A stretch of 32,000 nt of DNA from Pyrobaculum calidifontis JCM 11548 (lineage in GTDB: Archaea; Thermoproteota; Thermoprotei; Thermoproteales; Thermoproteaceae): positions 1,380,001 through 1,412,000 of the forward strand of contig NC_009073.1 of the NCBI RefSeq assembly GCF_000015805.1, read 5' to 3'. A model generated the notes under the pieces. That model had not been told where the DNA came from and made no database searches. It saw only the letters and a program-made list of their open reading frames with translations. Made by a program: the position numbers and the translations under genes. This document shows positions 2,145 through 31,385 of this stretch, piece after piece; within the stretch, counting starts at the first letter, position 1; each line of letters begins with the position of its first letter.

Positions 2145-2178
2145 GCCATATACAAAAATTCACACATTAAAGCCTTGC

Positions 2179-2204
2179 TATAACACTTGTACACTTAATA
2201 TACA
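2179..2204 (-). promoter_or_regulatory. Phased hexamer array upstream of ccmA: TATAAC-n3-TGTACA-cttaa-TATACA
   Basis: The plus strand reads TATAAC (2179-2184), TGTACA (2188-2193), TATACA (2199-2204). The central hexamer starts 44 nt from the start at 2144. A TATA-like TTTAAT (plus attaaa, 2166-2171) lies between. The 17-mer TGTACACTTAATATACA is identical to 7591-7607. Confidence 0.6.
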
Positions 2205-3546: not shown

Positions 3547-3563
3547 TGTATACTAAGTGTACA
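3547..3563 (-). promoter_or_regulatory. Hexamer pair TGTATA-ctaag-TGTACA upstream of ccmC
   Basis: TGTATA is at 3547-3552 and TGTACA at 3558-3563. The TGTACA starts 44 nt from the ATG at 3514. The pair abuts the TATA-like TTAAATA and lies 6 nt after the stop of the upstream cytochrome gene. Confidence 0.5.
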
Positions 3564-7548: not shown

Positions 7549-7566
7549 ATGCGCCTCTACACAGAA

Positions 7567-10101: not shown

Positions 10102-10167
10102 TGTATTTGTCAAGTACTTTTTTTATGTTTTTTGTACACTCTGTATTTTGTGTGTACATTTTGTATT
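10102..10167 (-). promoter_or_regulatory. Hexamer cluster upstream of the trihaem cytochrome gene
   Basis: TGTATT (10102-10107)-n5-AGTACT (10113-10118), with the latter starting 45 nt from the ATG at 10068. Two further copies of TGTACA-n3-TGTATT lie at 10133-10147 and 10153-10167, a 20-bp period. A TATA-like TTTAAATA (plus tatttaaa, 10090-10097) is present. The distal copies lie in the last codons of ORF 10110..11918. Confidence 0.5.
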
Positions 10168-12607: not shown

Positions 12608-14222
12608 GGCCCGCCAGCCTCCTTATTAAAATTGCAAGTATGGCAATGAACGGAAAAATCGCCGCCGTCAACACGTCTCGCGTCTCTTTGGGGGCTAGCT
12701 GGGGGTTTTGTGGTAGAGTTAGTACATACGCGTACCCCGACTCTACTTTGAAGGCGGCGAGGTTGTCGCCATAGAGGTAGAAGACGAGGTAGACGTAGTC
12801 GCCGGGGGGCATTGGCAAGAGGTATCTAAGTCTCACTGTGCCGTTTATGTACCCGGCGTAGCGGCCAGAGTTTGTGGAATTGAAAAGCGTCGTGGGCGGC
12901 AACGGGATGAGAACCCCGCTTTTGTTCATTAGTAGGATTGGCCATAGCGCCGTCTGTCTTAGGGGGTCTCTAGGCCTCGCTGTCACGTTCATTTCGACGT
13001 AGGCCGCCACGGCGTTGGGGAGGCGGGGTATTTCCAGTCTCATGAGGGGCTGCGGCTGTGTTAGCTGTATGGAGTAGTAGTGGGGCACCACTAGGGGTGT
13101 CTTTTTCTCCAGTGTAATGGGCTGGGCGGGTACTTGGGGCAGTTGTACCACGCCTTTTTTAACTACGCCGGGGCCTGTGTATACGACTGTGACATTTCCG
13201 CCTGCCGTGGCCTCCAGCGGCAAGAGGCGTATTGTCAACAGACTGGGCTTGGCCACCTCTGCAAAGAGCGTGGCTGAGAGCGCGTGTTCTAGGGCGAGCC
13301 CCTCTGGCGACACTGTGTCGTTTAATAACACGTCGTATTGTACTCCCAGCGCCGTCTGTCTAATGCCCACTACTACTCCGGCCAGCGTCCTGTATTCCAC
13401 CGTGGGCGGCTGTATTGATATAGGCCCGGTGTAGTTCATGGGGTATATGGCGTAGCGGTTTTGAGGCCCGGCTATCTCCACTTTGAAGTATGTGACGTTG
13501 CCCCACGCCTTTGACGGCTCTAGGAGTATCTCTCCGCCGCCGCTTAAGTCCTTCTCCACGGTGACGTTGCCCACGTTCAGCGTTACTTTTACCTGTATGT
13601 ACTTGGCTAAGTAGTAGTAATAGGGCTGGTACGCTATTCTCAGGGCCTTAGACCTATTGAAGCAGTACCATGAGACTATTTTTAGAAGGCCTATGTCTCC
13701 CCCGTATTTCCCGGCTAGGTCTATTTGAAGCCAGTTGCAGAGGTCTACCACCCGCGTTTTGACGTTGAAGGCTAGGGCGCGCCACTCGGGGGTAAAGACT
13801 AGGCTTTGCCCAGCCCTCTTGGCCGCCTCTGCTATGTCTAGGTAGTACACGTCTTTTACCACGCCGCCGCGGGTCACCACTATGAAAGTGGCATTTAAGA
13901 ACTCCACCGCTGTTTCCTCGCCTGCGCACGCGTCCATGAGGGTTTGGCTGAGGGACAACGTGGCAGTGTTCTGCGGGTTTTGGAAAACGTAGTGCATCGT
14001 CTTCTCCCCCTTCGCTCCGCAGTTGAAGCGTAGGTGTAAGACGGCTATTGTGTAGACGTCTTCGCCTAGGTGTTGAGATAGGGCGGTGTTGTTTACCTTG
14101 ACTGCAACTACTACGTCTGTTACTATGGTGAGCGTGGTCTTGTTTACTACTTCTACCTCGATGCCTGGCGCCACTGTTATGGCTATGGCGAAAGGGGCAA
14201 TAAGTAGAACGAGGTATTTCAT
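12600..14222 (-). CDS. Secreted, heavily N-glycosylation-sequon-rich protein of unknown function with a C-terminal anchor
   Basis: The start is reassigned to the ATG at 14222 (MKYLVLLIAPFAIAITVAPG, a signal peptide). The ORF-track extension to 14351 runs through the TATA and hexamer promoter region. At least 13 N-x-S/T sequons are present. C-terminal TM AAIFPFIAILAILIRRL. No recognisable catalytic or cofactor motif. Confidence 0.6.
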   Translation of the reverse strand: MKYLVLLIAPFAIAITVAPGIEVEVVNKTTLTIVTDVVVAVKVNNTALSQHLGEDVYTIAVLHLRFNCGAKGEKTMHYVFQNPQNTATLSLSQTLMDACAGEETAVEFLNATFIVVTRGGVVKDVYYLDIAEAAKRAGQSLVFTPEWRALAFNVKTRVVDLCNWLQIDLAGKYGGDIGLLKIVSWYCFNRSKALRIAYQPYYYYLAKYIQVKVTLNVGNVTVEKDLSGGGEILLEPSKAWGNVTYFKVEIAGPQNRYAIYPMNYTGPISIQPPTVEYRTLAGVVVGIRQTALGVQYDVLLNDTVSPEGLALEHALSATLFAEVAKPSLLTIRLLPLEATAGGNVTVVYTGPGVVKKGVVQLPQVPAQPITLEKKTPLVVPHYYSIQLTQPQPLMRLEIPRLPNAVAAYVEMNVTARPRDPLRQTALWPILLMNKSGVLIPLPPTTLFNSTNSGRYAGYINGTVRLRYLLPMPPGDYVYLVFYLYGDNLAAFKVESGYAYVLTLPQNPQLAPKETRDVLTAAIFPFIAILAILIRRLAGHG

Positions 14223-14254
14223 GTGTCTGAATTTTGTAAAATTATTTAAGCACA

Positions 14255-14282
14255 TGTATTCAAGTTGTACACTTGTTATAAT
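14255..14282 (-). promoter_or_regulatory. Phased hexamer array TGTATT-n5-TGTACA-n5-TATAAT
   Basis: TGTATT 14255-14260, TGTACA 14266-14271, TATAAT 14277-14282, in exact 11-bp register. The central hexamer starts 44 nt from the ATG at 14222. A TATA-like TTAAATAA (plus ttatttaa, 14243-14250) is present. The array overlaps the stop codon of the upstream nrfD-like gene. Confidence 0.6.
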
Positions 14283-15253
14283 GGTTCTGGAATTCCAGCG
14301 TATACCACTAGCGTTCTTAGGGCTAGTGCGCCGAAGAGGCCGGCGACGCATCCTGCGTAAGTTAACTTGGGGCTGTGCCTAATTTTTGACAGCGCGGCTG
14401 TGGCGAGGGGGGTTACGATTCCGAGGCCGATTACGAAGACCCAGAAGATCGGCGCTAGCTCGCCCCACAGCACTGCGTGTGCGCTTTCTCTTGCCGCGAA
14501 TGAGGCGGAGTTTAGGGCGTTGTAGAGGAAGAGGAATATCACGGCGACTTCGCCTATTTCAAATAAGACGCCGTATTTCTCAGTGGTGTGTACTAGGTGT
14601 TCTCTGTCTAAGTGGTACATTCTTATGAGGGCTAAGGCCCCCGCCGTGGCGCTGAATATCCATATGGTGGGTATGCCGGGGATTCCCCAGAGCGTCGTGT
14701 TCCAAAACGGCACTGCCTTTGCTTCAGATATTAAAAAGCCGCTGTACAACGTCACCAATACTCCGATGGCCATTGCTAGGTAGTAGTACCACCTCTGTGC
14801 CAGTAGCCACGTGGCGATTTTGTCTAAGAGGGCTAGTAGTGGCGCGAGGGGCTTTGCCAAAGGCTGTGGGAGCGCGGCTTGGATTCGTCTTACTAGGTAG
14901 GGGAGTGCCCATATGGCCACTACGAGAAGCGCCAGTATTAACATGACTATGCCGAGTGCCATCCAGGAAAATCGCAACTCCCCCCTTAGGAATGGGAAGA
15001 GGAAGTTGTATCTAAGCTCTAGGAAGGAGTTCAACATGGCGAACATCATGACTGTGGGTGGTCTTGAGAGATCTCCCATTACGAAGAGGAGGGCAAGTAT
15101 GATCGAGGCCAGTAGCACGTAGGTCAGCGTCTCGTACCGTAGCTCCTCTCCCCTTAGCTTGAAAATTGACATGGCCACCATCCCCATGCCGACTAGCCCG
15201 GCGAAGAATAGGAAGGGGCCTATTAAGAAGGCGTCCCAATACTCCTGAAACAT
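14276..15253 (-). CDS. NrfD/PsrC-family polytopic quinone-interacting membrane subunit
   Basis: 325 aa with about 8-9 TM helices. It is a paralog of 17544..18416 (both begin ...EIW/EYW..LIGPFL... and end ...LRxLVxxAGxxEP). It is the last gene of an operon with two FeS proteins and a cytochrome. Confidence 0.7.
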   Translation of the reverse strand: MFQEYWDAFLIGPFLFFAGLVGMGMVAMSIFKLRGEELRYETLTYVLLASIILALLFVMGDLSRPPTVMMFAMLNSFLELRYNFLFPFLRGELRFSWMALGIVMLILALLVVAIWALPYLVRRIQAALPQPLAKPLAPLLALLDKIATWLLAQRWYYYLAMAIGVLVTLYSGFLISEAKAVPFWNTTLWGIPGIPTIWIFSATAGALALIRMYHLDREHLVHTTEKYGVLFEIGEVAVIFLFLYNALNSASFAARESAHAVLWGELAPIFWVFVIGLGIVTPLATAALSKIRHSPKLTYAGCVAGLFGALALRTLVVYAGIPEPL

Positions 15254-16760: not shown

Positions 16761-16795
16761 TATTACAAATGTACACTTGGTATACATTGTGTACA
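16761..16795 (-). promoter_or_regulatory. Phased hexamer array TATTACA-n2-TGTACA-cttgg-TATACA-ttg-TGTACA
   Basis: TGTACA 16770-16775 starts 44 nt from the GTG at 16726. TATACA is at 16781-16786 and TGTACA at 16790-16795. A TATA-like TTTAAATA (plus tatttaaa, 16747-16754) is present. It has the same 26-nt architecture as 21486-21511. Confidence 0.6.
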
Positions 16796-17488
16796 CTACG
16801 AGTAGTGGCACTGTGTACATGGCCTACCTGTTATATCAGGCGGCGTAAGCTGTAGATGACAGGTAAGACAAGTCTTGCCCTCTACCACGCCTTGTAGACA
16901 GGGAGCTGCCGGGGGTACATAGGCGTGTGAATTTGGCGAGTGGCATTTGCCGCACATCTCTACGCTGAATGTGAAGGGGCTATTGTGCATTTGCATATGC
17001 TTTTCCACTGTGGGGAGGTATGGGTGGCAATTGGCGCAGGACTGGGGGAGGAAGTTTTCGATGTGGATGGCGTGGCACACGCTACATGTATTAGTGGTAT
17101 TAACTACTGCAAGGTGGGCGGTGTGTATGTACAACTTCTGTGGATTTGTGTGACATTCTAGACAGGGCTCATATAGGCCTTTGTGTGGATAATACTTATT
17201 GAATACGTCGAGGGAATTTGGGCGAGATGTCAAGTATGTCCAAACCATGTCTGCCATGTCGCCTATCGTAATTTTGTGGCATACGAGACAGCTGTATTTT
17301 GAGTGCGGCTTGCTTATATTGCCTATGTAGAATGACATTGTATGACATATTCCACATTGTACATTTACTGTTGGAGTATATACAAAAAATGCGTATAGGA
17401 CCGGTATCGAAAAAATAAGTATCAATATGACAATTACGATGGCCTTTATTACTGACGCCTTTTTAATAGGCATTCTAAATTTCAACAC
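16796..17488 (-). CDS. Membrane-anchored octahaem c-type cytochrome, NapC/NirT/NrfH-like (paralog of 11903..12607)
   Basis: N-terminal TM (AIVIVILILIFSIPVLYAFFV) and eight CxxCH motifs: CGICH, CLVCH, CLECH, CSVCH, CANCH, CGKCH, CLTCH, CTQCH. The motifs are collinear with the other octahaem protein. Start is GTG at 17488 or ATG at 17473. The gene is visibly AT-richer than its neighbours. Confidence 0.8.
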   Translation of the reverse strand: MLKFRMPIKKASVIKAIVIVILILIFSIPVLYAFFVYTPTVNVQCGICHTMSFYIGNISKPHSKYSCLVCHKITIGDMADMVWTYLTSRPNSLDVFNKYYPHKGLYEPCLECHTNPQKLYIHTAHLAVVNTTNTCSVCHAIHIENFLPQSCANCHPYLPTVEKHMQMHNSPFTFSVEMCGKCHSPNSHAYVPPAAPCLQGVVEGKTCLTCHLQLTPPDITGRPCTQCHYS

Positions 17489-17521
17489 AATGCTTCACAA
17501 TCAGAAAAATATATGCCTTGT

Positions 17522-17548
17522 TATTCAAGATGTACACTTTGTATTACA
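17522..17548 (-). promoter_or_regulatory. Phased hexamer array TATTCA-n3-TGTACA-n5-TATTACA
   Basis: TGTACA 17531-17536 starts 43 nt from the start at 17488. A TATA-like ATATATTT (plus aaatatat, 17508-17515) is present. The array overlaps the stop codon of the upstream nrfD-like gene. Confidence 0.55.
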
Positions 17549-18416: not shown

Positions 18417-18976
18417 GGCCCCACCACCACGAAGTACTTTGGCGAAGTGCCCTTTTCCTCAAGCAACCTAACGTAGCGGCTTCTCGCGAGCCTTCTAGAA
18501 ATCTCAGACGTTGGGTCGTCTATGTCTCCAAACGCCCTGGCGCCCGCTGGGCACACCTCTACGCAGACCGGCCGGAGGCCGGCCTTTACTCTGCTTAAAC
18601 ACTCCTCGCCCATGCACTTCATGGGCAAGCCGGTCTCTTCGTCTAGCCACCTGGCCTCGTAGGGGCAGGCCACCATGCAGTACTTACAGCCGATGCAGAG
18701 GGCCGGGTTTATCTTGACGAGTCCGTCTACGTCTCTGTAAGAGGCGCCGGTGGGGCACACTGTGACGCAGGGCGCATTTTCGCAGTGCTGGCACTGGACT
18801 AGCAACAACATGGGCCTGGGCCCCTTCTCCACAGCGATTCTCTTTATATTGCTTCTAAGCCACCCCCACGTCTTGTTTTCGCCTGTGGAAGAGCGGTAGT
18901 TTGCGGCGTTGCACGCGGCTATACACGCGCCGCAGGCAATGCACCTGGACTGGTCCCAGAGGTGTGCCAGCCTCAT
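18413..18976 (-). CDS. 4x[4Fe-4S] electron-transfer subunit (PsrB/DmsB-like)
   Basis: Cys clusters CIACGACIAAC, CQHCENAPCVTVCP, CIGCKYCMVACP and a C-terminal ...CVEVCP. No own signal peptide, consistent with co-export alongside the Tat-signal catalytic subunit. Confidence 0.8.
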   Translation of the reverse strand: MRLAHLWDQSRCIACGACIAACNAANYRSSTGENKTWGWLRSNIKRIAVEKGPRPMLLLVQCQHCENAPCVTVCPTGASYRDVDGLVKINPALCIGCKYCMVACPYEARWLDEETGLPMKCMGEECLSRVKAGLRPVCVEVCPAGARAFGDIDDPTSEISRRLARSRYVRLLEEKGTSPKYFVVVGP

Positions 18977-21441
18977 AGTCTCCTCACCCGAACGCTTGCG
19001 TTTGTAGCAGCGCTACCGCTCACCGGCTCTAGCTTGCCGCTGGCAAACCACTCCGGATTGACGCCCTCGCGGAGGAACTCGTACTCGCCAGTGAGTAGCC
19101 TACTCGTCCTACCCCCAGCCATTGCGTATGTGAACAACACCCCTGGTCTAACGCGGTTTGTCACCTTTACCACGGCCTTCGCCTTAAACCCGTTGTCTAA
19201 GCCCTCTAGCTCCACCACGTCTCCGTCTTTGACGCCTAGCCGCTCGGCGTCGACGGGGTTCATCCACACAGTCCTATCCACGATCCACTTGGCGTTCTTC
19301 ACCATGACCATGTGCGCGCTTATGATTTGATCCTTCCCGTTTACTAGGTAGAACTCGTCGGGGGCGCTTGGGACCTTGTACAGAGGCGGCCTCCAGTCGG
19401 GCAGTGGGTCTCTGTTGTACTGCAGAGCCCTCAGCGCGTAGATTTCCACTTTCCCGCTCGGAGTGCCCAGGGGCGTCTTATACGGCCTGGCCTCGTAAGA
19501 CTTCTTCTTAAAGACGTAGAACCCCTTGGCCTTGAGCTCCTCCTCCAGCCTCGCAGGGTCTAGGTTCCACGCATTTGCCAGACTTATGATTACGGCCTTC
19601 TTAATGGCCTCTTCGTATTCCTCAAAGGCGTGTGGGTCTGCGTACTTCTCCGTGTAGCCCACGGCGGCGGCCTTCTCTGGGAAGGCCCTCCTGATGATCT
19701 CCATCAAGGCCCAGAAGGCGTTTCTCGCATCTACGCCGGGGGGCGGGTCGAGCACTTTCTCCGAGTAGACTACGCCCGCGTGTAGACTCCACTTCATAGT
19801 CCCCATCTCGCCGCGCTCGAGGAACATGAGGTCTGGCAGTACGTAGTCGCACCAATCCACGTGGTCTTGCGGCAGTATGTCTATGGCCACCACTAGCTCC
19901 AACTTGCTTAAGGCTTGCTTGAGCTTCTCCGTATTGACGTCTCTTGTGAAAGGCGCAGTGCCCACTATGAAGAGGGCCTTTATCGGGTAGGGCTTCTCAG
20001 TGATTATTGCGTCGAGCAATGCGTCAAAGACGCTGGTCGCAAGCGGGTATGCCACCTTGTCCACTCTTTGGGCCTTGGGCGCTGGGAGCTCTTGCGCGGT
20101 TATGCCCACGTCGCATACTTGGAATATCGTCACCACTTTCCCCGCCGCGGTGGTAACCGCGTTTGGGTACTTGGCGCTTTCTTGGAAGCAGAGGCCGCCT
20201 CTCTTGTCTATGTTGCCCACTAGGGCGTTTAAGATGAGGATTGCCATGTACAAGTCGAGCTCGTTGCCGTTTTTAGCGGCGTACCACCCGTCCTCTGCCA
20301 CGCCCCTCGCCGTGGCGAACTCCACGGCAATTCTCCGAATATCGGCCGCGGGGACTCCGGTTATCTTCTCGGCCTCCTCTGGCGGATACTTAGCCGCCCT
20401 CTCGGCCAAGAGCTTAAACGCCGTCTTTACTCTGACCTCGCCCTGCGGCGTTTGAACAACGCCCTCGTAGTCCAGGGCCGGGTCTTGGGCCTTGTCATGT
20501 GGCACAAGGGACTTAGTCGCATTGTCGTAGACGAGGTAGGCCGAGCCTTCGCCGCCTAGGTCTTTCTCAGTGAGCGGCTTGCCGTCTGGCTTAATGAGGA
20601 ACGGGGCGTTGGTGTACTTCTTTAAAAACGCGGCGTCGTAGAGGCCCCGGGTTATTATCACGTTTATGAGAGAGAGTACGAAGGCCGTGTCTGTGCCTGG
20701 GATTATGGGCACCCACTCCACCGAGGAGTAGGCCAAGTTGGGGGCCCTTGGGTCAACTACGACAATTTTCACCCCCCTCTCCCTAGCCTTGGCCACCTGC
20801 CTCACGAGGCCCATCGCGGCGTCTAAATTCCTCCCCACCAGGAGGATGTAAGTGGCGTTTTCATAGTCTGGGTCCACTGAGGGCGGGCCTCCTGCGCCTA
20901 GGACAAACCCCCTGGCCACGGTGGGGGCGTTGTGGCAAGTCCCCTCGTGCCCCACCACGTTGGGAGTCCCCAAGACGCTGGCTATGAAGGGCAGTATCCA
21001 AGAGTGTACGTCGTGTCTAGTGAAGGCGACGCTCTCTGGCCCGTACTTGTTCACTATGTCTCTGAGCTTCTGTGCAATTTCGTTCAACGCAGTGTCCCAG
21101 TCCACCTCTTGGAACTTCCCCTCTCCCCTGTTTCCAACGCGCTTTAGAGGCTTCTTCAGCCTGAGGGGGTGGTTCCAGAGCTGAAGCGCAGAGGCTGGGC
21201 GGAAGCACATGCCGGGCTGGGGGTGCTCCAGGTTGGGCAAGAGGTACATTCTGTCGCCTCTTTTGACAAAGATTAAGCCGCACGCTGCTCCACACGCGCC
21301 GCAGATCACAGGCGCTTTCACCTCCTCCGCGGCCGTCTTTTGTGCAGTTTGCTGAGCCGCCGATGTCAGCGTCAGCGGAAGCGCAGAAACAACGCCAACA
21401 GTAGCGGCGAGTTTGACGAAGTCTCTTCTCGAAATTTCCAT
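18973..21441 (-). CDS. Molybdopterin (DMSO reductase family) oxidoreductase catalytic subunit, Psr/Phs/Arr/Ttr-like. Substrate not assignable.
   Basis: The start is reassigned to the ATG at 21441 (MEISRRDFVKLAATVGVVSALPL, a Tat signal). The track extension to 21543 runs through the promoter. N-terminal FeS0 motif CGACGAAC-x24-C. The length (822 aa) and A-B-C operon order are typical of the family. Confidence 0.8.
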   Translation of the reverse strand: MEISRRDFVKLAATVGVVSALPLTLTSAAQQTAQKTAAEEVKAPVICGACGAACGLIFVKRGDRMYLLPNLEHPQPGMCFRPASALQLWNHPLRLKKPLKRVGNRGEGKFQEVDWDTALNEIAQKLRDIVNKYGPESVAFTRHDVHSWILPFIASVLGTPNVVGHEGTCHNAPTVARGFVLGAGGPPSVDPDYENATYILLVGRNLDAAMGLVRQVAKARERGVKIVVVDPRAPNLAYSSVEWVPIIPGTDTAFVLSLINVIITRGLYDAAFLKKYTNAPFLIKPDGKPLTEKDLGGEGSAYLVYDNATKSLVPHDKAQDPALDYEGVVQTPQGEVRVKTAFKLLAERAAKYPPEEAEKITGVPAADIRRIAVEFATARGVAEDGWYAAKNGNELDLYMAILILNALVGNIDKRGGLCFQESAKYPNAVTTAAGKVVTIFQVCDVGITAQELPAPKAQRVDKVAYPLATSVFDALLDAIITEKPYPIKALFIVGTAPFTRDVNTEKLKQALSKLELVVAIDILPQDHVDWCDYVLPDLMFLERGEMGTMKWSLHAGVVYSEKVLDPPPGVDARNAFWALMEIIRRAFPEKAAAVGYTEKYADPHAFEEYEEAIKKAVIISLANAWNLDPARLEEELKAKGFYVFKKKSYEARPYKTPLGTPSGKVEIYALRALQYNRDPLPDWRPPLYKVPSAPDEFYLVNGKDQIISAHMVMVKNAKWIVDRTVWMNPVDAERLGVKDGDVVELEGLDNGFKAKAVVKVTNRVRPGVLFTYAMAGGRTSRLLTGEYEFLREGVNPEWFASGKLEPVSGSAATNASVRVRRL

Positions 21442-21473
21442 GTTTCCATAGAATTTTATAGATATAAAACTCT

Positions 21474-21511
21474 TGTTATGAAAAGTGTACACTTGATATA
21501 CATGTTGTACA
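21474..21511 (-). promoter_or_regulatory. Phased hexamer array TGTTAT-n6-TGTACA-cttga-TATACA-tgt-TGTACA
   Basis: TGTACA 21486-21491 starts 45 nt from the ATG at 21441. TATACA is at 21497-21502 and TGTACA at 21506-21511. A TATA-like TTTTATAT (plus atataaaa, 21462-21469) is present. The region is shared with the divergent HEPN gene. Confidence 0.6.
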
Positions 21512-21548
21512 TATGGCAAAGCTTTTATTTCTCTCAGCCCCATGGCGC

Positions 21549-21921
21549 GTGGAGTCTTGGCTTAGGCGGGCCGCCAAGTTTAGGGAATATGCCCGCGAGG
21601 ACTTACGCGCGGGGAGGTACGACTCCGCGGCGTTTTTTTGTGCAACAGTCGGTGGAGCTTGCGCTTAAGGCCCTTCTTATTAAGCTGACGGGCTCTAGGC
21701 CTCAGACCCACGCCACTGGCGACTTGCTTGAGCTTGTGGAAAAGGCGCTCGGCGTAACTTTTCCAGAGGACGTAAGGCGCTGCGCCGAGCTTTTAGAACA
21801 GCACTATATCCAGCCCCGCTGCCCAGAGGCGCGGCTCAGCGACTATAGGCGGTGGGAGGCTGAGGAGGCCGTGGAGTGTATGGAGAAGGTGTGGGCGCAT
21901 GTCGTGGATAAGTATCGTTAG
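21549..21921 (+). pseudogene. HEPN-domain protein gene interrupted by a +1 frameshift in a T7 run
   Basis: In the frame of GTG 21549, the sequence reads (M)ESWLRRAAKFREYAREDLRAGRYDSAAFF and stops at 21666-21668. The frame of ORF 21340..21921 continues VQQSVELALKALLIKLTGSRPQTH...LEQHYIQPRCPE. The two halves join seamlessly if one T is removed from the T7 run at 21633-21639. A TATA-like TTTTATTT at 21523-21530 fits a leaderless start at 21549. Confidence 0.6.
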
Positions 21922-22570
21922 AGAGGTGGCCGAGGAGAAGAGGAGGAGAGCTGAGGAGCTTATTAAACGGCTGTGCGAGAGGGGCGGCGCAGTTCTGCTC
22001 TTCGGCTCTAGGGCTAGGGGAGAGGCGCACCTTCTCAGCGACTGGGACTTGGCGCTCATTGTGGCTGAGGGGGAGTACAGAGTGGAGAGCACTGGCGTTG
22101 GGCAACTCTTCATAGTCCCCCTCGACAAGTTGGACAACATCCTGGAGTTCAGTATGGTCGTATTGGACATATTCGCCGACGGGGTGTTGCTCTGCGGCGA
22201 CGAATCGTTGTACAAGTCGGCGCTGGAGAGATTCAAACGCTACGTCGAGGAGAAGAGGCTTGTGAGAACTAGGCTGGGGGTGGATCCCCGCGTGGCTCTA
22301 AGACATAGCCTCTCCGCCGCGCGACCTGCGACCACGTCGGCCAGCTGTATGTCTGGCACCTTGTGCGACGGCTTGGCGACAAAGCGGGCGAATTTACCTA
22401 TGTTGACCAGCCCCTCATCTACTACATACAGGTCGGCCTCCACGCTTTTTATAAGCCTGAGGAAGGCTTGTTCTAGGTCTTTCTTCGCCTATGTGAACGA
22501 CCACATACTACGTGGGGTAATGCCTCACGATTTCCACGTACGCCTCCTCGCCGACGCCCATCCGCTTTAA
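21899..22570 (+). CDS. Minimal nucleotidyltransferase (MNT) partner of the HEPN gene. Only the first ~130 aa look like real coding sequence.
   Basis: Contains the motif LLFGSRARGEAHLLSDWDLALIV (GS-x-x-x-G...D-x-D). It overlaps the HEPN 3' end by 23 nt. After about 22290 the frame stays open, but the translation becomes Ser/Thr/Arg-rich and is antisense to a better-looking minus-strand reading frame. Confidence 0.55.
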   Translation: MSWISIVREVAEEKRRRAEELIKRLCERGGAVLLFGSRARGEAHLLSDWDLALIVAEGEYRVESTGVGQLFIVPLDKLDNILEFSMVVLDIFADGVLLCGDESLYKSALERFKRYVEEKRLVRTRLGVDPRVALRHSLSAARPATTSASCMSGTLCDGLATKRANLPMLTSPSSTTYRSASTLFISLRKACSRSFFAYVNDHILRGVMPHDFHVRLLADAHPL

Positions 22571-24650: not shown

Positions 24651-25145
24651 GTGCTTCCGAAGTCTCTGTTAGAGGAGGCCAAGAGGAGAGGCGTCGACCT
24701 TGTGGAAGTGGTTGCTAAGGCCCTTTCTCTCGACCCGCCAGCCATCGCCGAGGCGCACCTGGAGCTGGCCGAGCGCTTCTTGGAGGAGGGAAGGGGGCTA
24801 GTGGATAAAGACCCTGTGCAGGCCAGCGAGAAGTTGTACAAGGCGGCTGTAGAGGCCGTGAAGGCGGCGGCAGTGTTGTTGGGCCTTGAGGAGGCGGAGA
24901 GGGCAAGGGAGGCAGGCAGGTGGACCGCGGCGCTTCTCTTCAGCGCAGTAGAGAAGTTGGCTGAAAAGACGCAGAGGGAGGTTAGGTGGTGGTGGAGAAC
25001 TGCGTGGGTATTGCACGTGGAGGGATTCCACGAGGCTAGGCTTAAGCCCACTGAAAAAGACGTAGAAGACGTGGAAAATTTAGTCAAGCTTGTGGGAAAA
25101 CTGAAAAAAGGGGATTTAGGGGAAGTACCAGGCGCCGTTGGCTAA
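24651..25145 (+). CDS. PaREP1-like helical (HEPN-related) protein
   Basis: GTG start. The all-helical, Glu/Ala/Lys-rich translation contains AEAHLELAERFLEEGRGLVDKDPVQASEKLYKAAVEAVKAAA and ...WVLHVEGFHEARL. This matches my recollection of the Pyrobaculum PaREP1 family signature. Not verified by search. Confidence 0.5.
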   Translation: MLPKSLLEEAKRRGVDLVEVVAKALSLDPPAIAEAHLELAERFLEEGRGLVDKDPVQASEKLYKAAVEAVKAAAVLLGLEEAERAREAGRWTAALLFSAVEKLAEKTQREVRWWWRTAWVLHVEGFHEARLKPTEKDVEDVENLVKLVGKLKKGDLGEVPGAVG

Positions 25146-25946: not shown

Positions 25947-26632
25947 AGCCCCACGTAGTACACTCTTCCTCCAGTTCCAAGGTCTGGCCTTGCCAACTTG
26001 GCCTTGCCGCTTCTCACAAGCTCGGCAACTGGGTCGCTTGGGTCGTCCAAGTCGCCGAACATTCTAGACTTGGTGGGGCACACCTCCACACACGCCGGCG
26101 TCCACAGCTTCCCATCTCCGGCGTATCTGTGGTAGCAGAAGGTGCACTTGTCCACTGCGTCTACTCTAAACGCCCACTTGTTTGGCACAGGAGGCTTAAA
26201 CATGACTCCGCCGTAGGCCTCGCCGGCCGCGGCCTCTTTCACAAGGGGCGCCTCCTCGGCCTCGCGCCACTCGTGGGGCTCTGGCCTATACCTAGACCCG
26301 TAGGGGCAGGCCACTATGCAGTAACCACAGCCGATGCACAGCTCCTTGTCCACCAACACGACGCCCTCCTCTGTCTTATACGTAGCGCCCGTTGGACACA
26401 CCCTCTGACACGGCGTATTTTCACAGTGGTAGCACAGAGATGAGATAAACTTCCTCGCCGGCATATCTGACTCACGCCAATCCACCCAAGTCCTCAGTTT
26501 CACAGTCTGAGGCCTCCCCACGCTCTTTGGCCTAGCCGCAGTGAAGACTTGGCCGTGTTCAATTACACAAGCGGCTACGCAGGCGCGGCAGCCGACGCAC
26601 TTGCCTACGTCTATGACGAATACCGGCCTCAT
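25943..26632 (-). CDS. 4x[4Fe-4S] electron-transfer subunit (PsrB/TtrB-like)
   Basis: Cys clusters CVGCRACVAAC, CYHCENTPCQRVCP, CIGCGYCIVACP, CTFC...CVEVCP. No signal peptide. Confidence 0.8.
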   Translation of the reverse strand: MRPVFVIDVGKCVGCRACVAACVIEHGQVFTAARPKSVGRPQTVKLRTWVDWRESDMPARKFISSLCYHCENTPCQRVCPTGATYKTEEGVVLVDKELCIGCGYCIVACPYGSRYRPEPHEWREAEEAPLVKEAAAGEAYGGVMFKPPVPNKWAFRVDAVDKCTFCYHRYAGDGKLWTPACVEVCPTKSRMFGDLDDPSDPVAELVRSGKAKLARPDLGTGGRVYYVGL

Positions 26633-29600
26633 ACCCTCACCACCTCTACCACTGTGTTACCCATGGCCCCAGGCGTGCCCAATTTCCCAGCCATCATAGC
26701 GCCGAAGTAGTTGTCGTCGCTGTCCCCCGCCCTTATGTCGGCCAGCTTCGCCGCCTTGACCCTCAGCCGGCCCTTTGGCACAAGCCAGTAGTGGTATATG
26801 GCGATGATGTCCGGCCTAACCATGTTCGTCACCCTCACCTTGAACCTGGCCGTGGGGACGTTTTGGGCGCCCACGGCCTTTAATTGCTCAAGGACCTTGG
26901 GCGCCGCGGGCCTTACCTCAATCCAGTCCCCGTCCTTCACGCCGAGGGCCGCCGCGGTGGACGGGTGAATCCACGCAGTGAGGAGCTCGTCGGGCGTCAG
27001 AGTGTTTAGGAGCATGTTGTTCTGAGTGTGGCTGTGGGTGTGGGTATATGGCCCGTGGCGGTATACCAACAACAACCTCTTTGGCGGCTGCGGCGGGACG
27101 AGGCCGTTGACCTCGATGTCCGGCGTGGGAGGCGCCGTGGCCCACATGTAGTCTGGCCTAGCCATGCCCGCGTAGAGAGGCACTGGGGAGAACAGGGGGT
27201 CTACGCCGCTCTTTGTCCCTTCGAGGTCGGAGGGGTCTATAGACGTGGCTGGCTTGCCGAAGACTCTCGACACGTCGTAGGCCAAGTTTATGCTGTATAT
27301 CTCCACTCTCCCACTCGGCGTGGGGAATGGCACAGTGCCCGCAGTGATGGGCGCATTGTAGTGTATAGTCCTCCACAGCCACTGCTCTAGAGATACGTCG
27401 TATTTCACGGGCTTGTACACGTGGACTCTCACCTTCACCTCCCTGCCGAGCGCCTGCGACCACCTCTCGTCTACAACTGTCTCTATCCGGCCCGTGGGCA
27501 CGAGCACCATGTAGCCGCCCATCTTGTACAAGTCGTCCACCGTTGGAGCTCTCACGTTGCCCTGCTCGTCGACAATCCTAATCCTCCTAAACGTGGCGTT
27601 GATGAAGTTCCTCAGATTTGTTATTGGGAATATGCCGTCCTCTGTGATCATTCCCACGGGCATGTTCTGAGACCAGTCTGTCCCATCTCTCGCCTTGACG
27701 CCGAGCTGTTGCAACCGCCTCGCAATCATTAGCAAAACCTCGAATATTGTGCGCCCGTCCCTGGAGCGGTACTGCTTGTCCAACTCCCCCGGCTTAGCCC
27801 CCTGTTGTATCTTCGCCATGTACTCCTCGTAGTACCACGGGAATCTGACAGAGATGGCTGGGAACGGGGAGAACGGGCCGGGCAACGCCAAGTCCATCCT
27901 CTCGAGGTAGGGCAAGTCGGGGAGTATTAAGTCAGCGAAGGCCGTGGTGTCGTTGAACTGTATGTCGTGGACAATTACGAGGTCGAGCTCTCTGAAGATC
28001 TGTTCCACCAGCCTGGAGTTGCCTATCTGCGGTATTGGGTTAGAGCCTACGATGAACACAACCTTGGTCTTAAAGGGCTTGCCGTGTACCACGCTTTCGT
28101 ACAGCGCCTGTACAGTGTCGTACGGGTAGAGGTAGCCCTTCTTCTCGGCCTCCTCGGCCCACTTCTCCACTAGGGCAGGGACGGGTGGGGCGCCTCTGTC
28201 GCTGGGGCCTGGCAGCGGAGGCGCCACTGGGATGACGTATATGCCGCCTAGGTTAGCTGAGACGTACTCGCTGAAGGTGGCCCCACGTATTGTCTTATAC
28301 GGCACGTCCTTCCTAGTGTACTTAAGCACCTTGGTGTATATGTCGGAGTAGGGCATTATGAGGTGCGTCAACAGGAAGATGCCGCCTGGCTGCTGTATGC
28401 GGCCCAGCAGTGCCATTACTATCCCAACGGCTCTCCACGTCTGCGGCGAGTTGGAGTAGCGGGGGTCGTGCCAGCCGATGGGCGCCACGGCGCGGTGCTT
28501 GGCAACAATCTCCGCCGCCTTCCTCAAGTCTTCCACCGAGACGTCGGCCTCCTTTGCCGCAGCCTCCATGTAGTCGGCGACGCCGTGCTTCTTCGCGAGG
28601 GCGGCCAAGTTGGCGTCTACCCACTCCTTCAGGATGGTGAGCGCTGTCTTGACCTTCGCCGTGGTCCCGTCTTTTAGCTGTACCTCGTACTCGCCGAATA
28701 GGGCCGGCTTAGCCGCGGCGTTGTCTGGCGCAGGGGCGTTGGCGGCGGCGTCCCACACCACGTAGGCAAAGGCCTTGGGCTCAGATGCGCCGTACTTGGC
28801 CCAGTCTACCTCAGAGGCTAGGAGGGGTATCCCGTTGTCTAGCCTAATTAGGAAGGGGGCGTTGGTATATCTGACGAGGTAGGGCTCTGCGTAGTAGCCG
28901 TTGTCCAGTATGTACTTAATAAAGGCCAGGAGGACGGCGAGGTCTGTGCCCGGCTTAACCGGCAGCCAGACGTCTGCGTAGGAGGCGGTCTCGTCGAATA
29001 CTGGGCTTAGCACCACGAGCTTGGCCCCCCTCTTCACGGCCTCCATGAAGCGCCACGTTTCTGTCACAACGCCGGCGCCTATGACGTTGCGCCGCACCAC
29101 AAGTATGGCCTCCGCCTCGCCGTAGTCTACACACACGGTGTGGGCTTGGTGGCCGTGGCCCCACGTGAGCCAGTGGCCGAGGTAGCGGGGGTATGTGCAG
29201 TACGGGTTGTCAAAGGTTATTATCCCTCCGCCGAAGGTGTCGGCGAATCTAGAGATGGGGACTCCTGCCCTCATTGACGCCGTGGGGCCCCAGGCGCCGA
29301 AGAGGAACGTGAAGGCGTGCCTCTCGTTGTTGTCGGCGAGCTCCTTGAGCTTCTTCGCTATTATCTCAATGGCCGTGTTCCAGTCCACTTCTACAAAGTC
29401 GTCGTACTTCCCCCTGTTCTGTGAGAGCTGGCGCTTTGCCTCCTCCCAGCTGATCTTCCCCTGGGCCCAGTCCACCAGCGCCCTCCTGGCCATGGGCTTC
29501 TTTATGGCGTCTGGGTTAAGCCACGTACTAAACGTGCCCGAGACCCCCCTGGCGCATATCCCCATGGCGCTGGTGGGAGCGTTGGTGTTCGGCCTAATTC

Positions 29601-29805
29601 TCACCGGCTTCCCGTTCGCCACGTCTACATAGATGGCGCACTGCGCCATACACATCCCGCATATAGACGGCACCGAGGTGACCTTCACAGCGCTTGGCGC
29701 CTGTTGTCCCACCTGCTCCGCGGCCTTGATTAAAACACCGGCGACACCTCCAACAATGCCTATGGTAATACCAGCTTTAATTACATCACGCCTAGAGATA
29801 GACAT
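26629..29805 (-). CDS. Large (1058 aa) molybdopterin (DMSO reductase family) oxidoreductase catalytic subunit. The size is TtrA-like; the substrate is not assignable.
   Basis: Tat signal MSISRRDVIKAGITIGIVGG. FeS0 motif CGMCMAQC-x27-C. Followed by FeS and NrfD subunit genes, each with a 4-nt overlap. Confidence 0.8.
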   Translation of the reverse strand: MSISRRDVIKAGITIGIVGGVAGVLIKAAEQVGQQAPSAVKVTSVPSICGMCMAQCAIYVDVANGKPVRIRPNTNAPTSAMGICARGVSGTFSTWLNPDAIKKPMARRALVDWAQGKISWEEAKRQLSQNRGKYDDFVEVDWNTAIEIIAKKLKELADNNERHAFTFLFGAWGPTASMRAGVPISRFADTFGGGIITFDNPYCTYPRYLGHWLTWGHGHQAHTVCVDYGEAEAILVVRRNVIGAGVVTETWRFMEAVKRGAKLVVLSPVFDETASYADVWLPVKPGTDLAVLLAFIKYILDNGYYAEPYLVRYTNAPFLIRLDNGIPLLASEVDWAKYGASEPKAFAYVVWDAAANAPAPDNAAAKPALFGEYEVQLKDGTTAKVKTALTILKEWVDANLAALAKKHGVADYMEAAAKEADVSVEDLRKAAEIVAKHRAVAPIGWHDPRYSNSPQTWRAVGIVMALLGRIQQPGGIFLLTHLIMPYSDIYTKVLKYTRKDVPYKTIRGATFSEYVSANLGGIYVIPVAPPLPGPSDRGAPPVPALVEKWAEEAEKKGYLYPYDTVQALYESVVHGKPFKTKVVFIVGSNPIPQIGNSRLVEQIFRELDLVIVHDIQFNDTTAFADLILPDLPYLERMDLALPGPFSPFPAISVRFPWYYEEYMAKIQQGAKPGELDKQYRSRDGRTIFEVLLMIARRLQQLGVKARDGTDWSQNMPVGMITEDGIFPITNLRNFINATFRRIRIVDEQGNVRAPTVDDLYKMGGYMVLVPTGRIETVVDERWSQALGREVKVRVHVYKPVKYDVSLEQWLWRTIHYNAPITAGTVPFPTPSGRVEIYSINLAYDVSRVFGKPATSIDPSDLEGTKSGVDPLFSPVPLYAGMARPDYMWATAPPTPDIEVNGLVPPQPPKRLLLVYRHGPYTHTHSHTQNNMLLNTLTPDELLTAWIHPSTAAALGVKDGDWIEVRPAAPKVLEQLKAVGAQNVPTARFKVRVTNMVRPDIIAIYHYWLVPKGRLRVKAAKLADIRAGDSDDNYFGAMMAGKLGTPGAMGNTVVEVVRV

Positions 29806-29837
29806 GTGTTATACGAATGCTTTTATTTTTAAACGTT

Positions 29838-29905
29838 TGTATTAATAATGGACAAGAGTTAACACAGTATATGTCTATTGTACACCTGTGTACACTTTAT
29901 ATACA
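29838..29905 (-). promoter_or_regulatory. Extended hexamer cluster upstream of the 1058-aa oxidoreductase gene
   Basis: TGTATT (29838-29843)-n5-TGGACA (29849-29854), with the latter starting 44 nt from the ATG at 29805. Distal hexamers: TGTACA 29879-29884, TGTACA 29889-29894, TATACA 29900-29905. A TATA-like TTTAAAAATAAAA (plus 29821-29833) is present. The distal part overlaps the stop of the RHH gene (29897). Confidence 0.55.
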
Positions 29906-30334
29906 CTCCACTTCGAGGAAGTCGCCCCGTTCTCTGCAATTGCACCCAACTCCGACGAAGAGGCCACAGAGCGTGGCCCTCATCTGGGGGTCGCTCACTC
30001 GGAAGAGGTTGTTCCCCACCCTGTATGCAGACATCACCTGGGGCCCCACGCATGTAACTACCTCGAAGAACTCCCTAGGCGTGTAGTACGCGCGGAGCAA
30101 CATCCCAGCATTGACGCCGACTTCGTAGCCAGATCTGCCAGGCCCAACACTCCTAGTAATTCTGCAGATGTGTATTAGGTCAATGGGGTCAATGCCGTGG
30201 TCTACGGCGTCTATAAGCGCCTGTATCGCCGCCTCTACAACCTCGGAGGGCCTCCTCCCCACTTTTTTCACCTTTTGAGAAAACTCTTGGGCGAGGGCTT
30301 GGTCTACGGCCAGGCGGGCATAACGCTGAGGCAT
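29897..30334 (-). CDS. Ribbon-helix-helix (CopG/Arc-like) N-terminal domain protein with a Cys-containing C-terminal domain of unknown function. Candidate transcription regulator.
   Basis: The N-terminus is RYARLAVDQALAQEFSQKVKKVGRRPSEVVEAAIQALIDAV. This fits the pattern beta-strand, helix, G-x-x-x-SE, helix. The C-terminal ~90 aa have no motif I recognise and include 5 Cys residues. Confidence 0.55.
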   Translation of the reverse strand: MPQRYARLAVDQALAQEFSQKVKKVGRRPSEVVEAAIQALIDAVDHGIDPIDLIHICRITRSVGPGRSGYEVGVNAGMLLRAYYTPREFFEVVTCVGPQVMSAYRVGNNLFRVSDPQMRATLCGLFVGVGCNCRERGDFLEVECI

Positions 30335-30351
30335 GTACTACCGTAGTACAT
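30333..30351 (-). promoter_or_regulatory. Perfect 8-3-8 palindrome ATGTACTA-ccg-TAGTACAT over the start of the RHH gene (candidate operator)
   Basis: Read directly: 30333-30340 ATGTACTA, 30344-30351 TAGTACAT. The palindrome includes the first two bases of the start codon (30334-30333), which spans 30332-30334. A TATA-like TTTTATATC (plus gatataaaa, 30355-30363) lies immediately upstream in gene orientation. Confidence 0.6.
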
Positions 30352-30364
30352 CTAGATATAAAAA

Positions 30365-30931
30365 TTATCCACAAGTAATCTCTGCTGTTATTACGTTTTT
30401 CTCCACGGCGATTTTTGGCTGACATTTCCATTGTCGTATGGCTTCTTCTGCGAATGTGGCTAGGCATTTTGCCGATTTTTCGCCGGGGGCTATGAAGACT
30501 ATTCTCCACGTCTCTCCCCGGCGGGTGAAGCTTAGGCGGGCCGTTGGGAATAGGGCGAAGAACTGGGCCGCCGTCTGTACCAGCTCGGGGAATGTGAAGC
30601 GTGCAGAGGCCAGTTGGCCAAACCTTGCCCCCATCTCTCTCAGCGCCTTAGCCACGTCTCCGTCTTCACACACTCCCCACTTCTCGGCAAAGAGCTCCAA
30701 AAGCGGAAGAGGCACGGGGACGACGTCGAAGGCAAGGGCAAGCTCCACCAGCCTAAACATCTCTAAACCCCTAGAAGGAGAAATACCACGACGAAAAAGC
30801 TCCACAGCCAAGCGGAGGGCGTCTGAGGAAAACCTTATGAGAGAGAGTCTTTGGCTTTTTGCGAGGGCGGAGGCCTCCTTTGCCACGTCGCCTTCGACTG
30901 GTATCGTGGTTCTCGGCGTCTCTTCTTCCAT
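30365..30931 (-). CDS. Protein with a possible ribbon-helix-helix-like N-terminus and an unknown C-terminal domain
   Basis: TTIPVEGDVAKEASALAKSQRLSLIRFSSDALRLAVELF has a strand-helix-helix pattern, weaker than in the downstream gene. 188 aa, with no other recognisable motif. Confidence 0.4.
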   Translation of the reverse strand: MEEETPRTTIPVEGDVAKEASALAKSQRLSLIRFSSDALRLAVELFRRGISPSRGLEMFRLVELALAFDVVPVPLPLLELFAEKWGVCEDGDVAKALREMGARFGQLASARFTFPELVQTAAQFFALFPTARLSFTRRGETWRIVFIAPGEKSAKCLATFAEEAIRQWKCQPKIAVEKNVITAEITCG

Positions 30932-30953: not shown

Positions 30954-31385
30954 TTAAGGCTTCACGGCTTGTAGCTTCATGCCTCCCTCTAGTCCCCCCT
31001 CGGGGAAGTACCAGTCTTTTACTATCTTGAAGCCGCACTGCTCTAGCAGTTTTCCAAGTCTGGTCTCCCCTGGCGGGGTTCCCCTCTGGAGCTGGGCCAG
31101 GGTCTCTTTGTCGCCGACGTATTCGAGGTAGAGGACGTCGCCGGGCTCCATGTGGCGGTGGAGGACGCAGAGGACGTGGCGCAGCTCCTCGGCGGAGGCG
31201 CCTTGGCTTATGTTGAAGACCTCTGCCCACGGCGAGTAGTAGGGCGGGCGGCCCTTGAAGACTTTTACAACGCACAGCGCCTCCCCGCCCCTGTAGATTA
31301 TGAAGTCCACCTCCTCGGGGTAGCGGCCCCTCTTTGCCACAGCTCTCAGAGGCGCAAAGGCCGAGGGCTCCAACTCAGCCAGCAC
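30954..31385 (-). CDS. Conserved-looking hypothetical protein (143 aa)
   Basis: Clean ORF with a GTG start and a TATA-like element (plus tatttata, 31403-31410) 18-25 nt upstream. No motif recognised. It lies 22 nt upstream of the next gene, so it is probably co-transcribed. Confidence 0.5.
   Translation of the reverse strand: MLAELEPSAFAPLRAVAKRGRYPEEVDFIIYRGGEALCVVKVFKGRPPYYSPWAEVFNISQGASAEELRHVLCVLHRHMEPGDVLYLEYVGDKETLAQLQRGTPPGETRLGKLLEQCGFKIVKDWYFPEGGLEGGMKLQAVKP

Follow-up and report, generated by a model that had tools for sequence, protein, structure and literature searches.

A conserved pair of putative ribbon-helix-helix transcription factors with novel predicted sensor domains, linked to a TGTACA motif at respiratory promoters of Pyrobaculum calidifontis

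Introduction

A 32,000-nucleotide stretch of the Pyrobaculum calidifontis JCM 11548 genome (contig NC_009073.1, positions 1,380,001 to 1,412,000 of the forward strand; hereafter, the window) harbors two adjacent genes encoding proteins of 145 and 188 amino acids (aa), which are best described as a conserved pair of paralogous, putative ribbon-helix-helix (RHH) transcription factors with novel predicted sensor domains, linked to a previously undescribed motif of a respiratory regulon, the hexamer TGTACA. From comparative sequence analysis, the pair emerges as the best candidate for the regulator of the neighbouring respiratory genes and as a putative binder of this hexamer. That one or both proteins bind TGTACA arrays, with Cys-bearing C-terminal domains acting as redox or metal sensors, had been proposed in a sequence-only reading of the window, and that overall interpretation was partly supported by the present analysis.

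Pyrobaculum is a textbook case of respiratory versatility among hyperthermophilic archaea, with O2, nitrate, arsenate, selenate, Fe(III) and sulfur compounds as acceptors. In the literature accessible to us, neither a regulator of Pyrobaculum respiratory pathways nor a prior description of the TGTACA motif or of the gene pair was found.

Results

The 145-aa and 188-aa genes encode two conserved families with RHH-like N-termini

The genes under study and the operon next to them are the following:

29897..30334, minus strand: 145-aa gene (open reading frame (ORF) list; conserved family alignment)
30365..30931, minus strand: 188-aa gene (ORF list; conserved family alignment)
26629..29805, minus strand: 1058-aa Psr/Phs-type molybdopterin oxidoreductase gene (Pfam), in the presumed target operon adjoining the pair

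Both small ORFs proved to be genuine, conserved genes, as had been assumed. The 145-aa protein corresponds to ABO08928.1 / WP_011850186.1, labelled as a hypothetical protein, and the 188-aa protein is 100% identical to a hypothetical protein of P. calidifontis. At the protein level, both families are conserved in many Pyrobaculum and Thermoproteus, the two genera to which sequence searches confined them. For profile comparisons, we built alignments of the 145-aa family (A1, mean column identity of 82%), of the 188-aa family (A2) and of the combined N-termini of both (A3). A search of 1.84 billion representative proteins with the A1 profile retrieved just two relatives and gave no connection to any known family or to A2.

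The N-termini of both families are RHH-like in profile comparisons. When aligned with hhalign against 15 classical RHH domains, the combined N-termini (A3) matched with a probability of 89% (E 2e-6), in register from the strand through helix B, while the 188-aa and the 145-aa families alone matched with probabilities of 76% (E 2.2e-5) and 61% (E 8.3e-5), respectively. The observed scores were between 22 and 29, and none of 100 column-shuffled controls, which scored at most 15.4, reached them. RHH N-termini had been anticipated for both proteins, with the weaker one assigned to the 188-aa protein; the RHH character held for both, but it is the 188-aa family that carries the stronger signature.

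Further features of the N-termini are in keeping with this profile match. Residues alternating along the predicted strand are invariant in each family (Y5, R7 and A9 in the 145-aa family; R, T and P in the 188-aa family), and a G-x-S helix-capping turn is conserved, as GRxPS in one family and as G-F-S in the other. In the AlphaFold2 (AF2) models (pLDDT 75 for the 145-aa and 83 for the 188-aa protein), an extended N-terminus is followed by two helices (residues 12-24 and 29-45 in the 145-aa protein, 14-26 and 31-47 in the 188-aa protein), and then by more helices and a small antiparallel sheet packed on a helix.

The two families also resemble each other. Their N-termini align with one gap, and comparison of A1 with A2 gave an hhalign score of 29.7, versus 13.0 ± 2.1 for shuffled alignments, with the similarity extending over approximately the first 60 residues, over which the families are distant paralogs. 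No similarity was detectable between their C-terminal halves (E 0.36). The 145-aa protein is laid out as an RHH-like N-terminus (~residues 4-45), a core comprising the invariant DHGxDPxDxxHxCR motif and a Gly-rich part (residues 42-86), and a small alpha/beta C-terminal domain; in the 188-aa protein, a canonical RHH-like N-terminus (RTTIPVEGDVAKE...G-x-S...) is followed by a helical region and a bb-a-bb C-terminal domain. Sub-threshold matches of the pair to TetR_C_33 and RepB were taken as noise, and low-E matches of A3 in the PDB, to unrelated designed PPR proteins, phosphoglycerate kinase and de novo proteins, were treated as spurious.

The promoter of the 145-aa gene carries a candidate operator between the TATA box and the start codon

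30333..30351, no strand assigned: candidate operator, perfect 19-bp palindrome (letters and cross-genome comparison)
30356..30364, minus strand: TATA box of the 145-aa gene, TTTTTATAT, directly 3' of the 188-aa stop codon

On the plus strand, positions 30333-30351 read ATGTACTACCGTAGTACAT. The sequence-only reading had placed a perfect palindrome here, between the TATA box and the start codon and overlapping the latter; its position was exact, and its architecture is in fact 9-1-9 (ATGTACTAC-C-GTAGTACAT). In the direction of the gene, the stop codon TAA of the 188-aa gene (30367-30365) is followed by the TATA box TTTTTATAT, CTAGA, TGTACT, ACGGT, AGTACA and TG. The palindrome therefore comprises two hexamers 11 bp apart, TGTACT (30350-30345) and AGTACA (30339-30334), the second of which overlaps the start codon, as its last base is the A of the ATG (30334). 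The distance of 21 nucleotides (nt) from the end of the TATA box to the ATG fits a leaderless promoter; Pyrobaculum transcripts are usually leaderless.

Taken alone, the palindrome is no more than what chance would provide, because the window contains four perfect inverted repeats (arms ≥ 8 nt, spacers ≤ 6 nt), compared with 4.3 ± 2.5 in Markov simulations; its weight comes from other genomes. The same expectation of about four perfect palindromes of this size per window would suit a fortuitous repeat, or an RNA or DNA hairpin devoid of an operator role, for example a terminator of the 188-aa gene, whose stop codon lies 14 nt ahead of the palindrome, which follows a T-run. We consider this very improbable. 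It is the hexamers, and not the extended stem, that are conserved, in 11 of the 12 non-redundant loci, at a fixed distance from the TATA box, while the spacers vary; moreover, the palindrome matched no Rfam family as an RNA element and, to our knowledge, archaeal termination needs no hairpins.

The pair and its promoter boxes are conserved across genomes

We compared 14 loci (labelled L001 and so on), 12 of which are non-redundant; a contig scan for relatives by means of exact peptide patterns gave seven loci. The pair is carried by P. calidifontis, P. aerophilum, P. arsenaticum, P. oguniense, P. islandicum, WP30, Thermoproteus tenax (in two copies) and metagenome-assembled genomes (MAGs). The 188-aa gene is next to the 145-aa gene in every one of the 14 loci; their order never changes, and the gap between them is 20-40 nt.

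A TGTACA box, exact or with one mismatch, separates the TATA box of the 145-aa-family gene from its ATG in 11 of the 12 non-redundant loci; the spacers vary, and in seven of these 11 loci a second (x)GTACA covers the ATG, at a distance of 10-11 bp from the first. Alignment of nine of the intergenic regions revealed the succession of a TATA box (TTATA core invariant, TTTATAT in most), a variable stretch of 4-5 nt, TGTACA (in 8/9, counting the TGTACT of the window) and a further variable stretch of 4-5 nt, plus (x)GTACA across the ATG in five regions. The operator layout of P. islandicum is the same, and the second T. tenax pair has TGAACA-N4-TGTACAtg. Boxes between the TATA box and the start of a gene are the usual signature of its autoregulator, and a conserved site-like element so placed is what 11 of the 12 loci display; the suggestion that the palindrome occupies the position of an autorepressor operator was supported by the conserved placing between TATA box and ATG. 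Only 145-aa-family genes carry boxes downstream of the TATA box, in contrast to the respiratory promoters, in which the boxes lie upstream of it.

A core shared between the palindrome and the respiratory arrays had likewise been proposed. The TGTACA hexamer is indeed common to both, but the extended 19-bp palindrome is specific to P. calidifontis, and the conserved unit is the hexamer, usually present twice at 10-11 bp. The operator of the window, TGTACT-N5-AGTACA, has the same 6-5-6 geometry as the 17-mers of the respiratory promoters, and TGTACA-N5-TATACA in P. calidifontis and P. islandicum follows the same 6-5-6 layout.

Hexamers were also found on the other side of the 145-aa-family gene, with TGTACA pairs 3' of it in L005, L007-L010 and L013 and single hexamers in L001, L006 and L011. 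Pairs of the TGTACA-N4-TGTACA type, or single copies, precede the orthologous molybdenum (Mo) oxidoreductase and, in L010 and the second T. tenax copy, an SQR-like gene; in P. islandicum, TGTACAtaagtTATACA is located in the divergent promoter of a PhsA-like oxidoreductase adjoining the pair. All ortholog-bearing loci examined possess hexamer elements, so that the expected co-occurrence of orthologs and arrays holds in the direction from ortholog to array.

The combination of a two-gene module, small proteins, an RHH-like N-terminus and a promoter palindrome would also be expected from a type II toxin-antitoxin-like module with an autoregulating RHH antitoxin. That the pair is such a module is extremely improbable, considering that both partners carry an RHH-like domain, that neither matches a toxin family, that the operator-bearing promoter drives the second gene only, and that, instead of being patchy or mobile, the pair shows vertical conservation and synteny with respiratory genes throughout the genus.

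Several observations concern the surroundings of the pair. The synteny of oxidoreductase operon and gene pair is conserved. The 1058-aa oxidoreductase gene is followed by genes for 4Fe-4S and NrfD subunits, and the top NCBIfam match of its product is PhsA, under the curated cutoff. On the other side, a DUF1122 gene (window 30954-31385) ends 22 nt ahead of the 188-aa gene; given that the gap lacks a clear TATA box, with only a weak TTAAAAGG overlapping the DUF1122 stop codon, the 188-aa gene may be co-transcribed with the DUF1122 gene in P. calidifontis. Other species do not share this neighbour. A conserved ORF of ~85 aa, which the window lacks, ends just ahead of the 188-aa-family gene in P. 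aerophilum, P. oguniense and two MAGs (L001 5135-5392, L011 9730-9972, L007 9739-9960, L008 9750-9974). The 188-aa gene of WP30-type genomes has a TGTACA 10 nt upstream of its own TATA box, which hints that the two paralogs may be regulated differently. In T. tenax, the whole pair is present in two paralogous copies, one near dsrABC and the other (L013 8001-9026) directly 5' of an SQR-like gene, an arrangement which suggests duplication and sub-specialisation of the system.

TGTACA hexamers mark respiratory promoters

The hexamer elements of the window outside the 145-aa promoter are the following:

29879..29905, no strand assigned: array upstream of the 1058-aa oxidoreductase operon (gene strand: TGTATA, N5, TGTACA, N4, TGTACA)
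29822..29833, minus strand: TATA box of the 1058-aa oxidoreductase operon, TTTAAAAATAA (letters)
2188..2204, no strand assigned: 17-mer TGTACActtaaTATACA, regulon module, 15 nt upstream of the TATA box of the ccmA-like operon
16770..16819, no strand assigned: three TGTACA and one TGTATA upstream of a 4Fe-4S/NrfD operon
3547-3563, 7591-7607, 10133-10158, 14266-14271, 17531-17536 and 21486-21511: further copies of the module

TGTACA occurs 30 times in the window, versus 5.35 copies expected. Fourteen of these copies fall within the 110-nt zones upstream of start codons, which corresponds to 5.5 per kb compared with 0.54 per kb elsewhere (p = 1.6e-8); in 2000 simulations based on the composition of each zone, the expected count was 1.23 ± 1.10, with a maximum of 6. 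All 14 zone copies are situated at nine promoters of respiratory or cytochrome genes, in agreement with the hexamer array that had been reported there. These promoters belong to ccmA-, ccmC- and ccmF-like cytochrome c maturation genes, two multihaem cytochrome operons, 4Fe-4S/NrfD operons, two Psr/Phs-type Mo-oxidoreductases and two secreted proteins of unknown function. Six of them share a fixed module consisting of TGTATA, nnAAG, TGTACA, 15-16 nt and the TATA box, in which the proximal hexamer is located at -49 to -44 from the start codon. Overall, neighbouring hexamers are 9, 10, 11, 20 or 21 bp apart.

The array of the 1058-aa oxidoreductase operon overlaps the end of the 145-aa gene (final two codons plus stop codon). 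As had been noted before, this stop codon lies inside the hexamer cluster, specifically within the 17-mer TGTACActttaTATACA (29889-29905), and a third TGTACA is found at 29879-29884.

The hexamer is not a generic promoter feature. In non-coding DNA of nine loci, TGTACA is the commonest 6-bp palindrome, and among 72 annotated genes of four loci its presence within 120 nt upstream of the start codon was restricted. It was found at 4/4 genes of the 145-aa family (at -15 or -5), 2/2 Mo-oxidoreductases and 2/2 SQR-like genes; the remaining carriers were a winged helix-turn-helix (wHTH)-like gene, a YeiH-family (PF03601) gene and a 72-aa ORF. None of the ammonium transport, NAD synthase, glycolytic, CRISPR or dsr genes in this set carried it. 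On account of this restricted occurrence and of its rank among non-coding palindromes, TGTACA is a specific cis-element.

Further observations were made on the modules themselves. The longest ORFs for a 583-aa protein (12600-14351, minus strand) and an 856-aa protein (18973-21543, minus strand) begin 5' of the promoter modules that serve them; the true start codons are probably ATG 14222 (MKYLVLLIAP..., signal-peptide-like) and ATG 21441 (MEISRRDFVK, Tat-like), which put the proximal TGTACA at -49 to -44, as in four other promoters. Conservation extends to the 15-nt spacer that separates the proximal TGTACA from the TATA box (nnTTGnATAnCAAGG, e.g., tCTTGaataaCAAGg; window 2150-2187, 7553-7590, 17493-17530). 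This spacer recurs 5' of the T. tenax SQR-like gene (cagaTTATAGCTAAG, L013 9052-9066); it may represent a second protein-binding site or an extended element proximal to the B recognition element (BRE). The respiratory island is interrupted by a HEPN/nucleotidyltransferase pair (21340-22570) and a PaREP1-family gene (24651-25145), the upstream regions of which are devoid of TGTACA boxes. Within genes, TGTACA is ~3-fold over-represented (16 copies outside promoter zones versus ~5 in dinucleotide shuffles; e.g., at 4484, 5778, 27414 and 28109), probably owing to codon usage (TAC Tyr contexts). No RNA families were found in an Rfam scan of the window.

The C-terminal regions contain candidate sensor residues

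The C-terminal domains had been proposed as sensors on account of their Cys residues. In the 188-aa family, four Cys residues (C88, C156, C170 and the C-terminal C187) are conserved, but T. tenax and P. islandicum lack the C-terminal Cys residues of the 145-aa protein. Conservation within the 145-aa family is highest over residues 42-86 (DAVDHGIDPIDxIHICRxxRSxGxGRxGYExGxxAGxLLRAYYxP), and within its DHGxDPxDxxHxCR motif H46, D49, D52, H55 and C57 are invariant. These residues resemble a metal- or cofactor-binding cluster, and the motif is a better sensor candidate than the C-terminal Cys residues of this family.

In Foldseek searches, the 188-aa model matched TPC6/Bet3, H-NOX, the PoxR sensor domain and BcsD at E-values from 5e-4 to 1e-2. 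Its non-RHH part matched TPC6 (Bet3 fold), Nostoc H-NOX and the V4R-type phenol sensor of PoxR at E-values from 5e-3 to 1e-2, with TM-scores of 0.33-0.45. Because BcsD and designed alpha/beta proteins match the model as well or better, a V4R/Bet3/H-NOX fold for the tail of the 188-aa protein is only suggestive, and the V4R, H-NOX and Bet3 models of Pfam did not match the pair proteins.

Conserved Cys and His residues, together with the fact that in most loci the pair adjoins genes for Psr/Phs-type Mo-oxidoreductases or SQR-like genes and that neither protein matches curated DNA-binding families, could also indicate a co-regulated redox protein, or a factor with an accessory, assembly or maturation role for the molybdoenzyme or cytochrome complexes encoded nearby. 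We regard such a role as improbable: the similarity of the N-termini to RHH profiles is far above that of shuffled controls, TorD/NarJ-type chaperones do not match the pair proteins, the genes downstream of the pair are different ones in T. tenax (L004) and P. islandicum, and the operator-like position of the boxes in the 145-aa promoter would be left unexplained.

Discussion

In the reading that we favour, and which we hold to be an evenly balanced proposition, the genes code for two RHH transcription factors that are distant paralogs and form a lineage-specific pair, each combining an N-terminal RHH domain with a C-terminal ligand- or redox-sensing domain. We infer that the pair would bind DNA, repress the 145-aa gene and control the TGTACA regulon. 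Held only tentatively is the further-reaching view that this Thermoproteaceae-specific pair with Cys/His-rich sensors is the master respiratory regulator in Pyrobaculum, possibly hetero-oligomeric, which would activate from hexamer arrays two helical turns upstream of the TATA box and repress one of its own genes from hexamers downstream of it, with Psr/Phs-type molybdoenzymes, SQR, multihaem cytochromes and cytochrome c maturation as its targets.

Two helix-turn-helix (HTH) heads need more room than a dyad-symmetric site of 6 bp offers, whereas the two-fold-symmetric beta-ribbon of one RHH dimer fits such a site. In the mechanism that we propose, each self-complementary TGTACA hexamer would take up one RHH dimer, whose two-stranded beta-ribbon would enter a single major groove, and hexamers one helical turn apart (9-11 bp) would be bound cooperatively, in the manner of MetJ or Arc. 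At the leaderless 145-aa promoter, the two hexamers would span the interval from the TATA box to the start site, and their occupancy would block recruitment of RNA polymerase, resulting in negative autoregulation. At the respiratory promoters, the proximal hexamer is placed about two turns upstream of the TATA box, a position like that of an archaeal activator, and the same protein or proteins might activate or gate transcription from there. The signal would be sensed by the conserved Cys and His residues; candidates are the redox state, reactive sulfur species, and a metal or an Fe-S cofactor. Signals of these kinds are proposed because of the residues named and of the Psr/Phs-like, SQR-like, YeiH-family and cytochrome targets, and reactive sulfur in particular because Psr/Phs-like reductases and an SQR-like enzyme are among the targets.

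Several points weigh against this interpretation. With the full proteins, all A1 members and the N-terminal fragments as queries, no RHH family was found in Pfam at E ≤ 10; an NCBIfam scan of both proteins yielded neither an RHH nor another informative family, PDB sequence searches with A1 and A2 gave nothing below E 0.4, and no RHH chain was retrieved with A1, A2 or A3. The profile search and structure prediction by which the sequence-only reading was to be checked hence had a divided outcome, with an RHH profile match and an AF2 strand-helix-helix fit on the one hand, and no sequence matches in Pfam, NCBIfam or PDB on the other. In addition, the reference RHH sequences were entered by hand, the AF2 models are monomers, so that the defining beta-ribbon dimer is outside their scope, and the model of the 145-aa protein has no significant fold match. 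At the level of DNA, the 145-aa-family promoter of L010 (a Thermoproteales MAG) has GTGGGCCCAC in place of TGTACA although the predicted DNA-facing strand residues are unchanged, one T. tenax pair is located near dsr genes with neighbouring promoters free of arrays, and every genome compared carries the pair. The replacing element of L010 is a GC-rich palindrome (10550-10578, GTGGGCCCAC / CACATGTG), and a TGTACA-N4-TGTACA pair is still present 3' of the gene.

A further point of this kind comes from a wHTH-like gene (HVO_A0261_N/PF0610 domain, weak, E 6e-5) located directly 5' of the pair in P. islandicum and T. tenax (L012 7457-7984 and L004 4596-5180, encoding proteins of 175 and 194 aa that are 78% identical). 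It would accommodate an alternative in which a different factor binds TGTACA, such as a winged-helix dimer reading the 17-bp TGTAYA-N5-TRTACA, while the 145-aa gene is a repressed member of the regulon and the pair does another job. The half-sites of the 17-mer are 11 bp apart, the classic spacing of an HTH dimer, and the P. islandicum copy of the wHTH-like gene carries the 17-mer in its own promoter. Although deserving of serious consideration, this alternative is in our judgement unlikely, as no wHTH-like gene of this kind occurs within 10 kb of the pair in any other locus, the window included, and the variable spacing of the hexamers (9, 10, 11, 20 and 21 bp), together with their 6-bp palindromic unit, suits a small symmetric dimer better than a rigid HTH dimer. 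Furthermore, the 145-aa-family gene alone has boxes 3' of its TATA box, the autoregulator signature retained in 11/12 non-redundant loci.

Among known systems, NikR, the nickel-responsive RHH regulator of bacteria and archaea, offers a parallel to the RHH pair that we favour, in that it joins an N-terminal RHH domain to a C-terminal domain that serves in sensing and oligomerisation and provides His/Cys ligands, and acts on a palindromic operator overlapping the promoter, as is putatively the case for the pair; the H46/D49/D52/H55/C57 cluster of the 145-aa protein may recall its His/Cys metal site. The pair differs from it in having no sequence, Pfam or NCBIfam match to NikR/NikR_C, in a C-terminal fold that is predicted not to be an ACT-like ferredoxin fold (the order of predicted secondary structures differs), in the location of two paralogous genes together, and in its 6-bp boxes 10-11 bp apart, whereas the two half-sites of the NikR operator are ~16 bp apart. 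With MetJ and Arc/Mnt/CopG, the pair would share short two-fold-symmetric boxes, each for one RHH dimer, cooperative binding on arrays of 2-5 boxes and autorepression from promoter-overlapping sites. MetJ binds met boxes and Arc operator subsites are 11 bp apart, and binding by RHH proteins is cooperative. Unlike these proteins, to which they are related by profile-profile comparison only, the pair proteins are 3-4 times larger, with extra domains, and their presumed arrays also occupy an activator-like position, 5' of the TATA box, in archaeal TBP/TFB-dependent promoters.

As for the V4R sensors (PoxR/DmpR/MopR), the predicted helical layer and antiparallel sheet of the 188-aa protein can be aligned to TPC6, Nostoc H-NOX and PoxR, and its four conserved Cys may be compared with the Cys-ligated zinc site of the MopR/PoxR-type sensor. 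On the other hand, the TM-scores are low (0.33-0.45) and there is no match to the V4R family of Pfam, and fusions of V4R with RHH domains are not known to us. With FNR, ArcA, NarL and SqrR/CstR/BigR, the resemblance would be one of role only, namely that of an autoregulated, Cys-based sensor placed over terminal reductases, cytochrome maturation and an SQR-like gene; their folds (CRP/FNR, response regulators, ArsR) are unrelated and they work with the bacterial transcription machinery.

The present analysis delivers a cis-element of fixed promoter geometry, conserved across genera, together with a testable candidate for its binder, and two orphan protein families can now be described as a predicted RHH domain combined with a predicted sensor domain. 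If the proposed role is true, the pair would provide a rare case of an archaeal RHH protein serving both as a global activator and as an autorepressor, and would constitute, on an RHH scaffold, an archaeal functional counterpart of FNR/ArcA or of persulfide sensors like SqrR. It would also open a way to the signal by which these organisms switch respiratory modes at ~90-100 °C.

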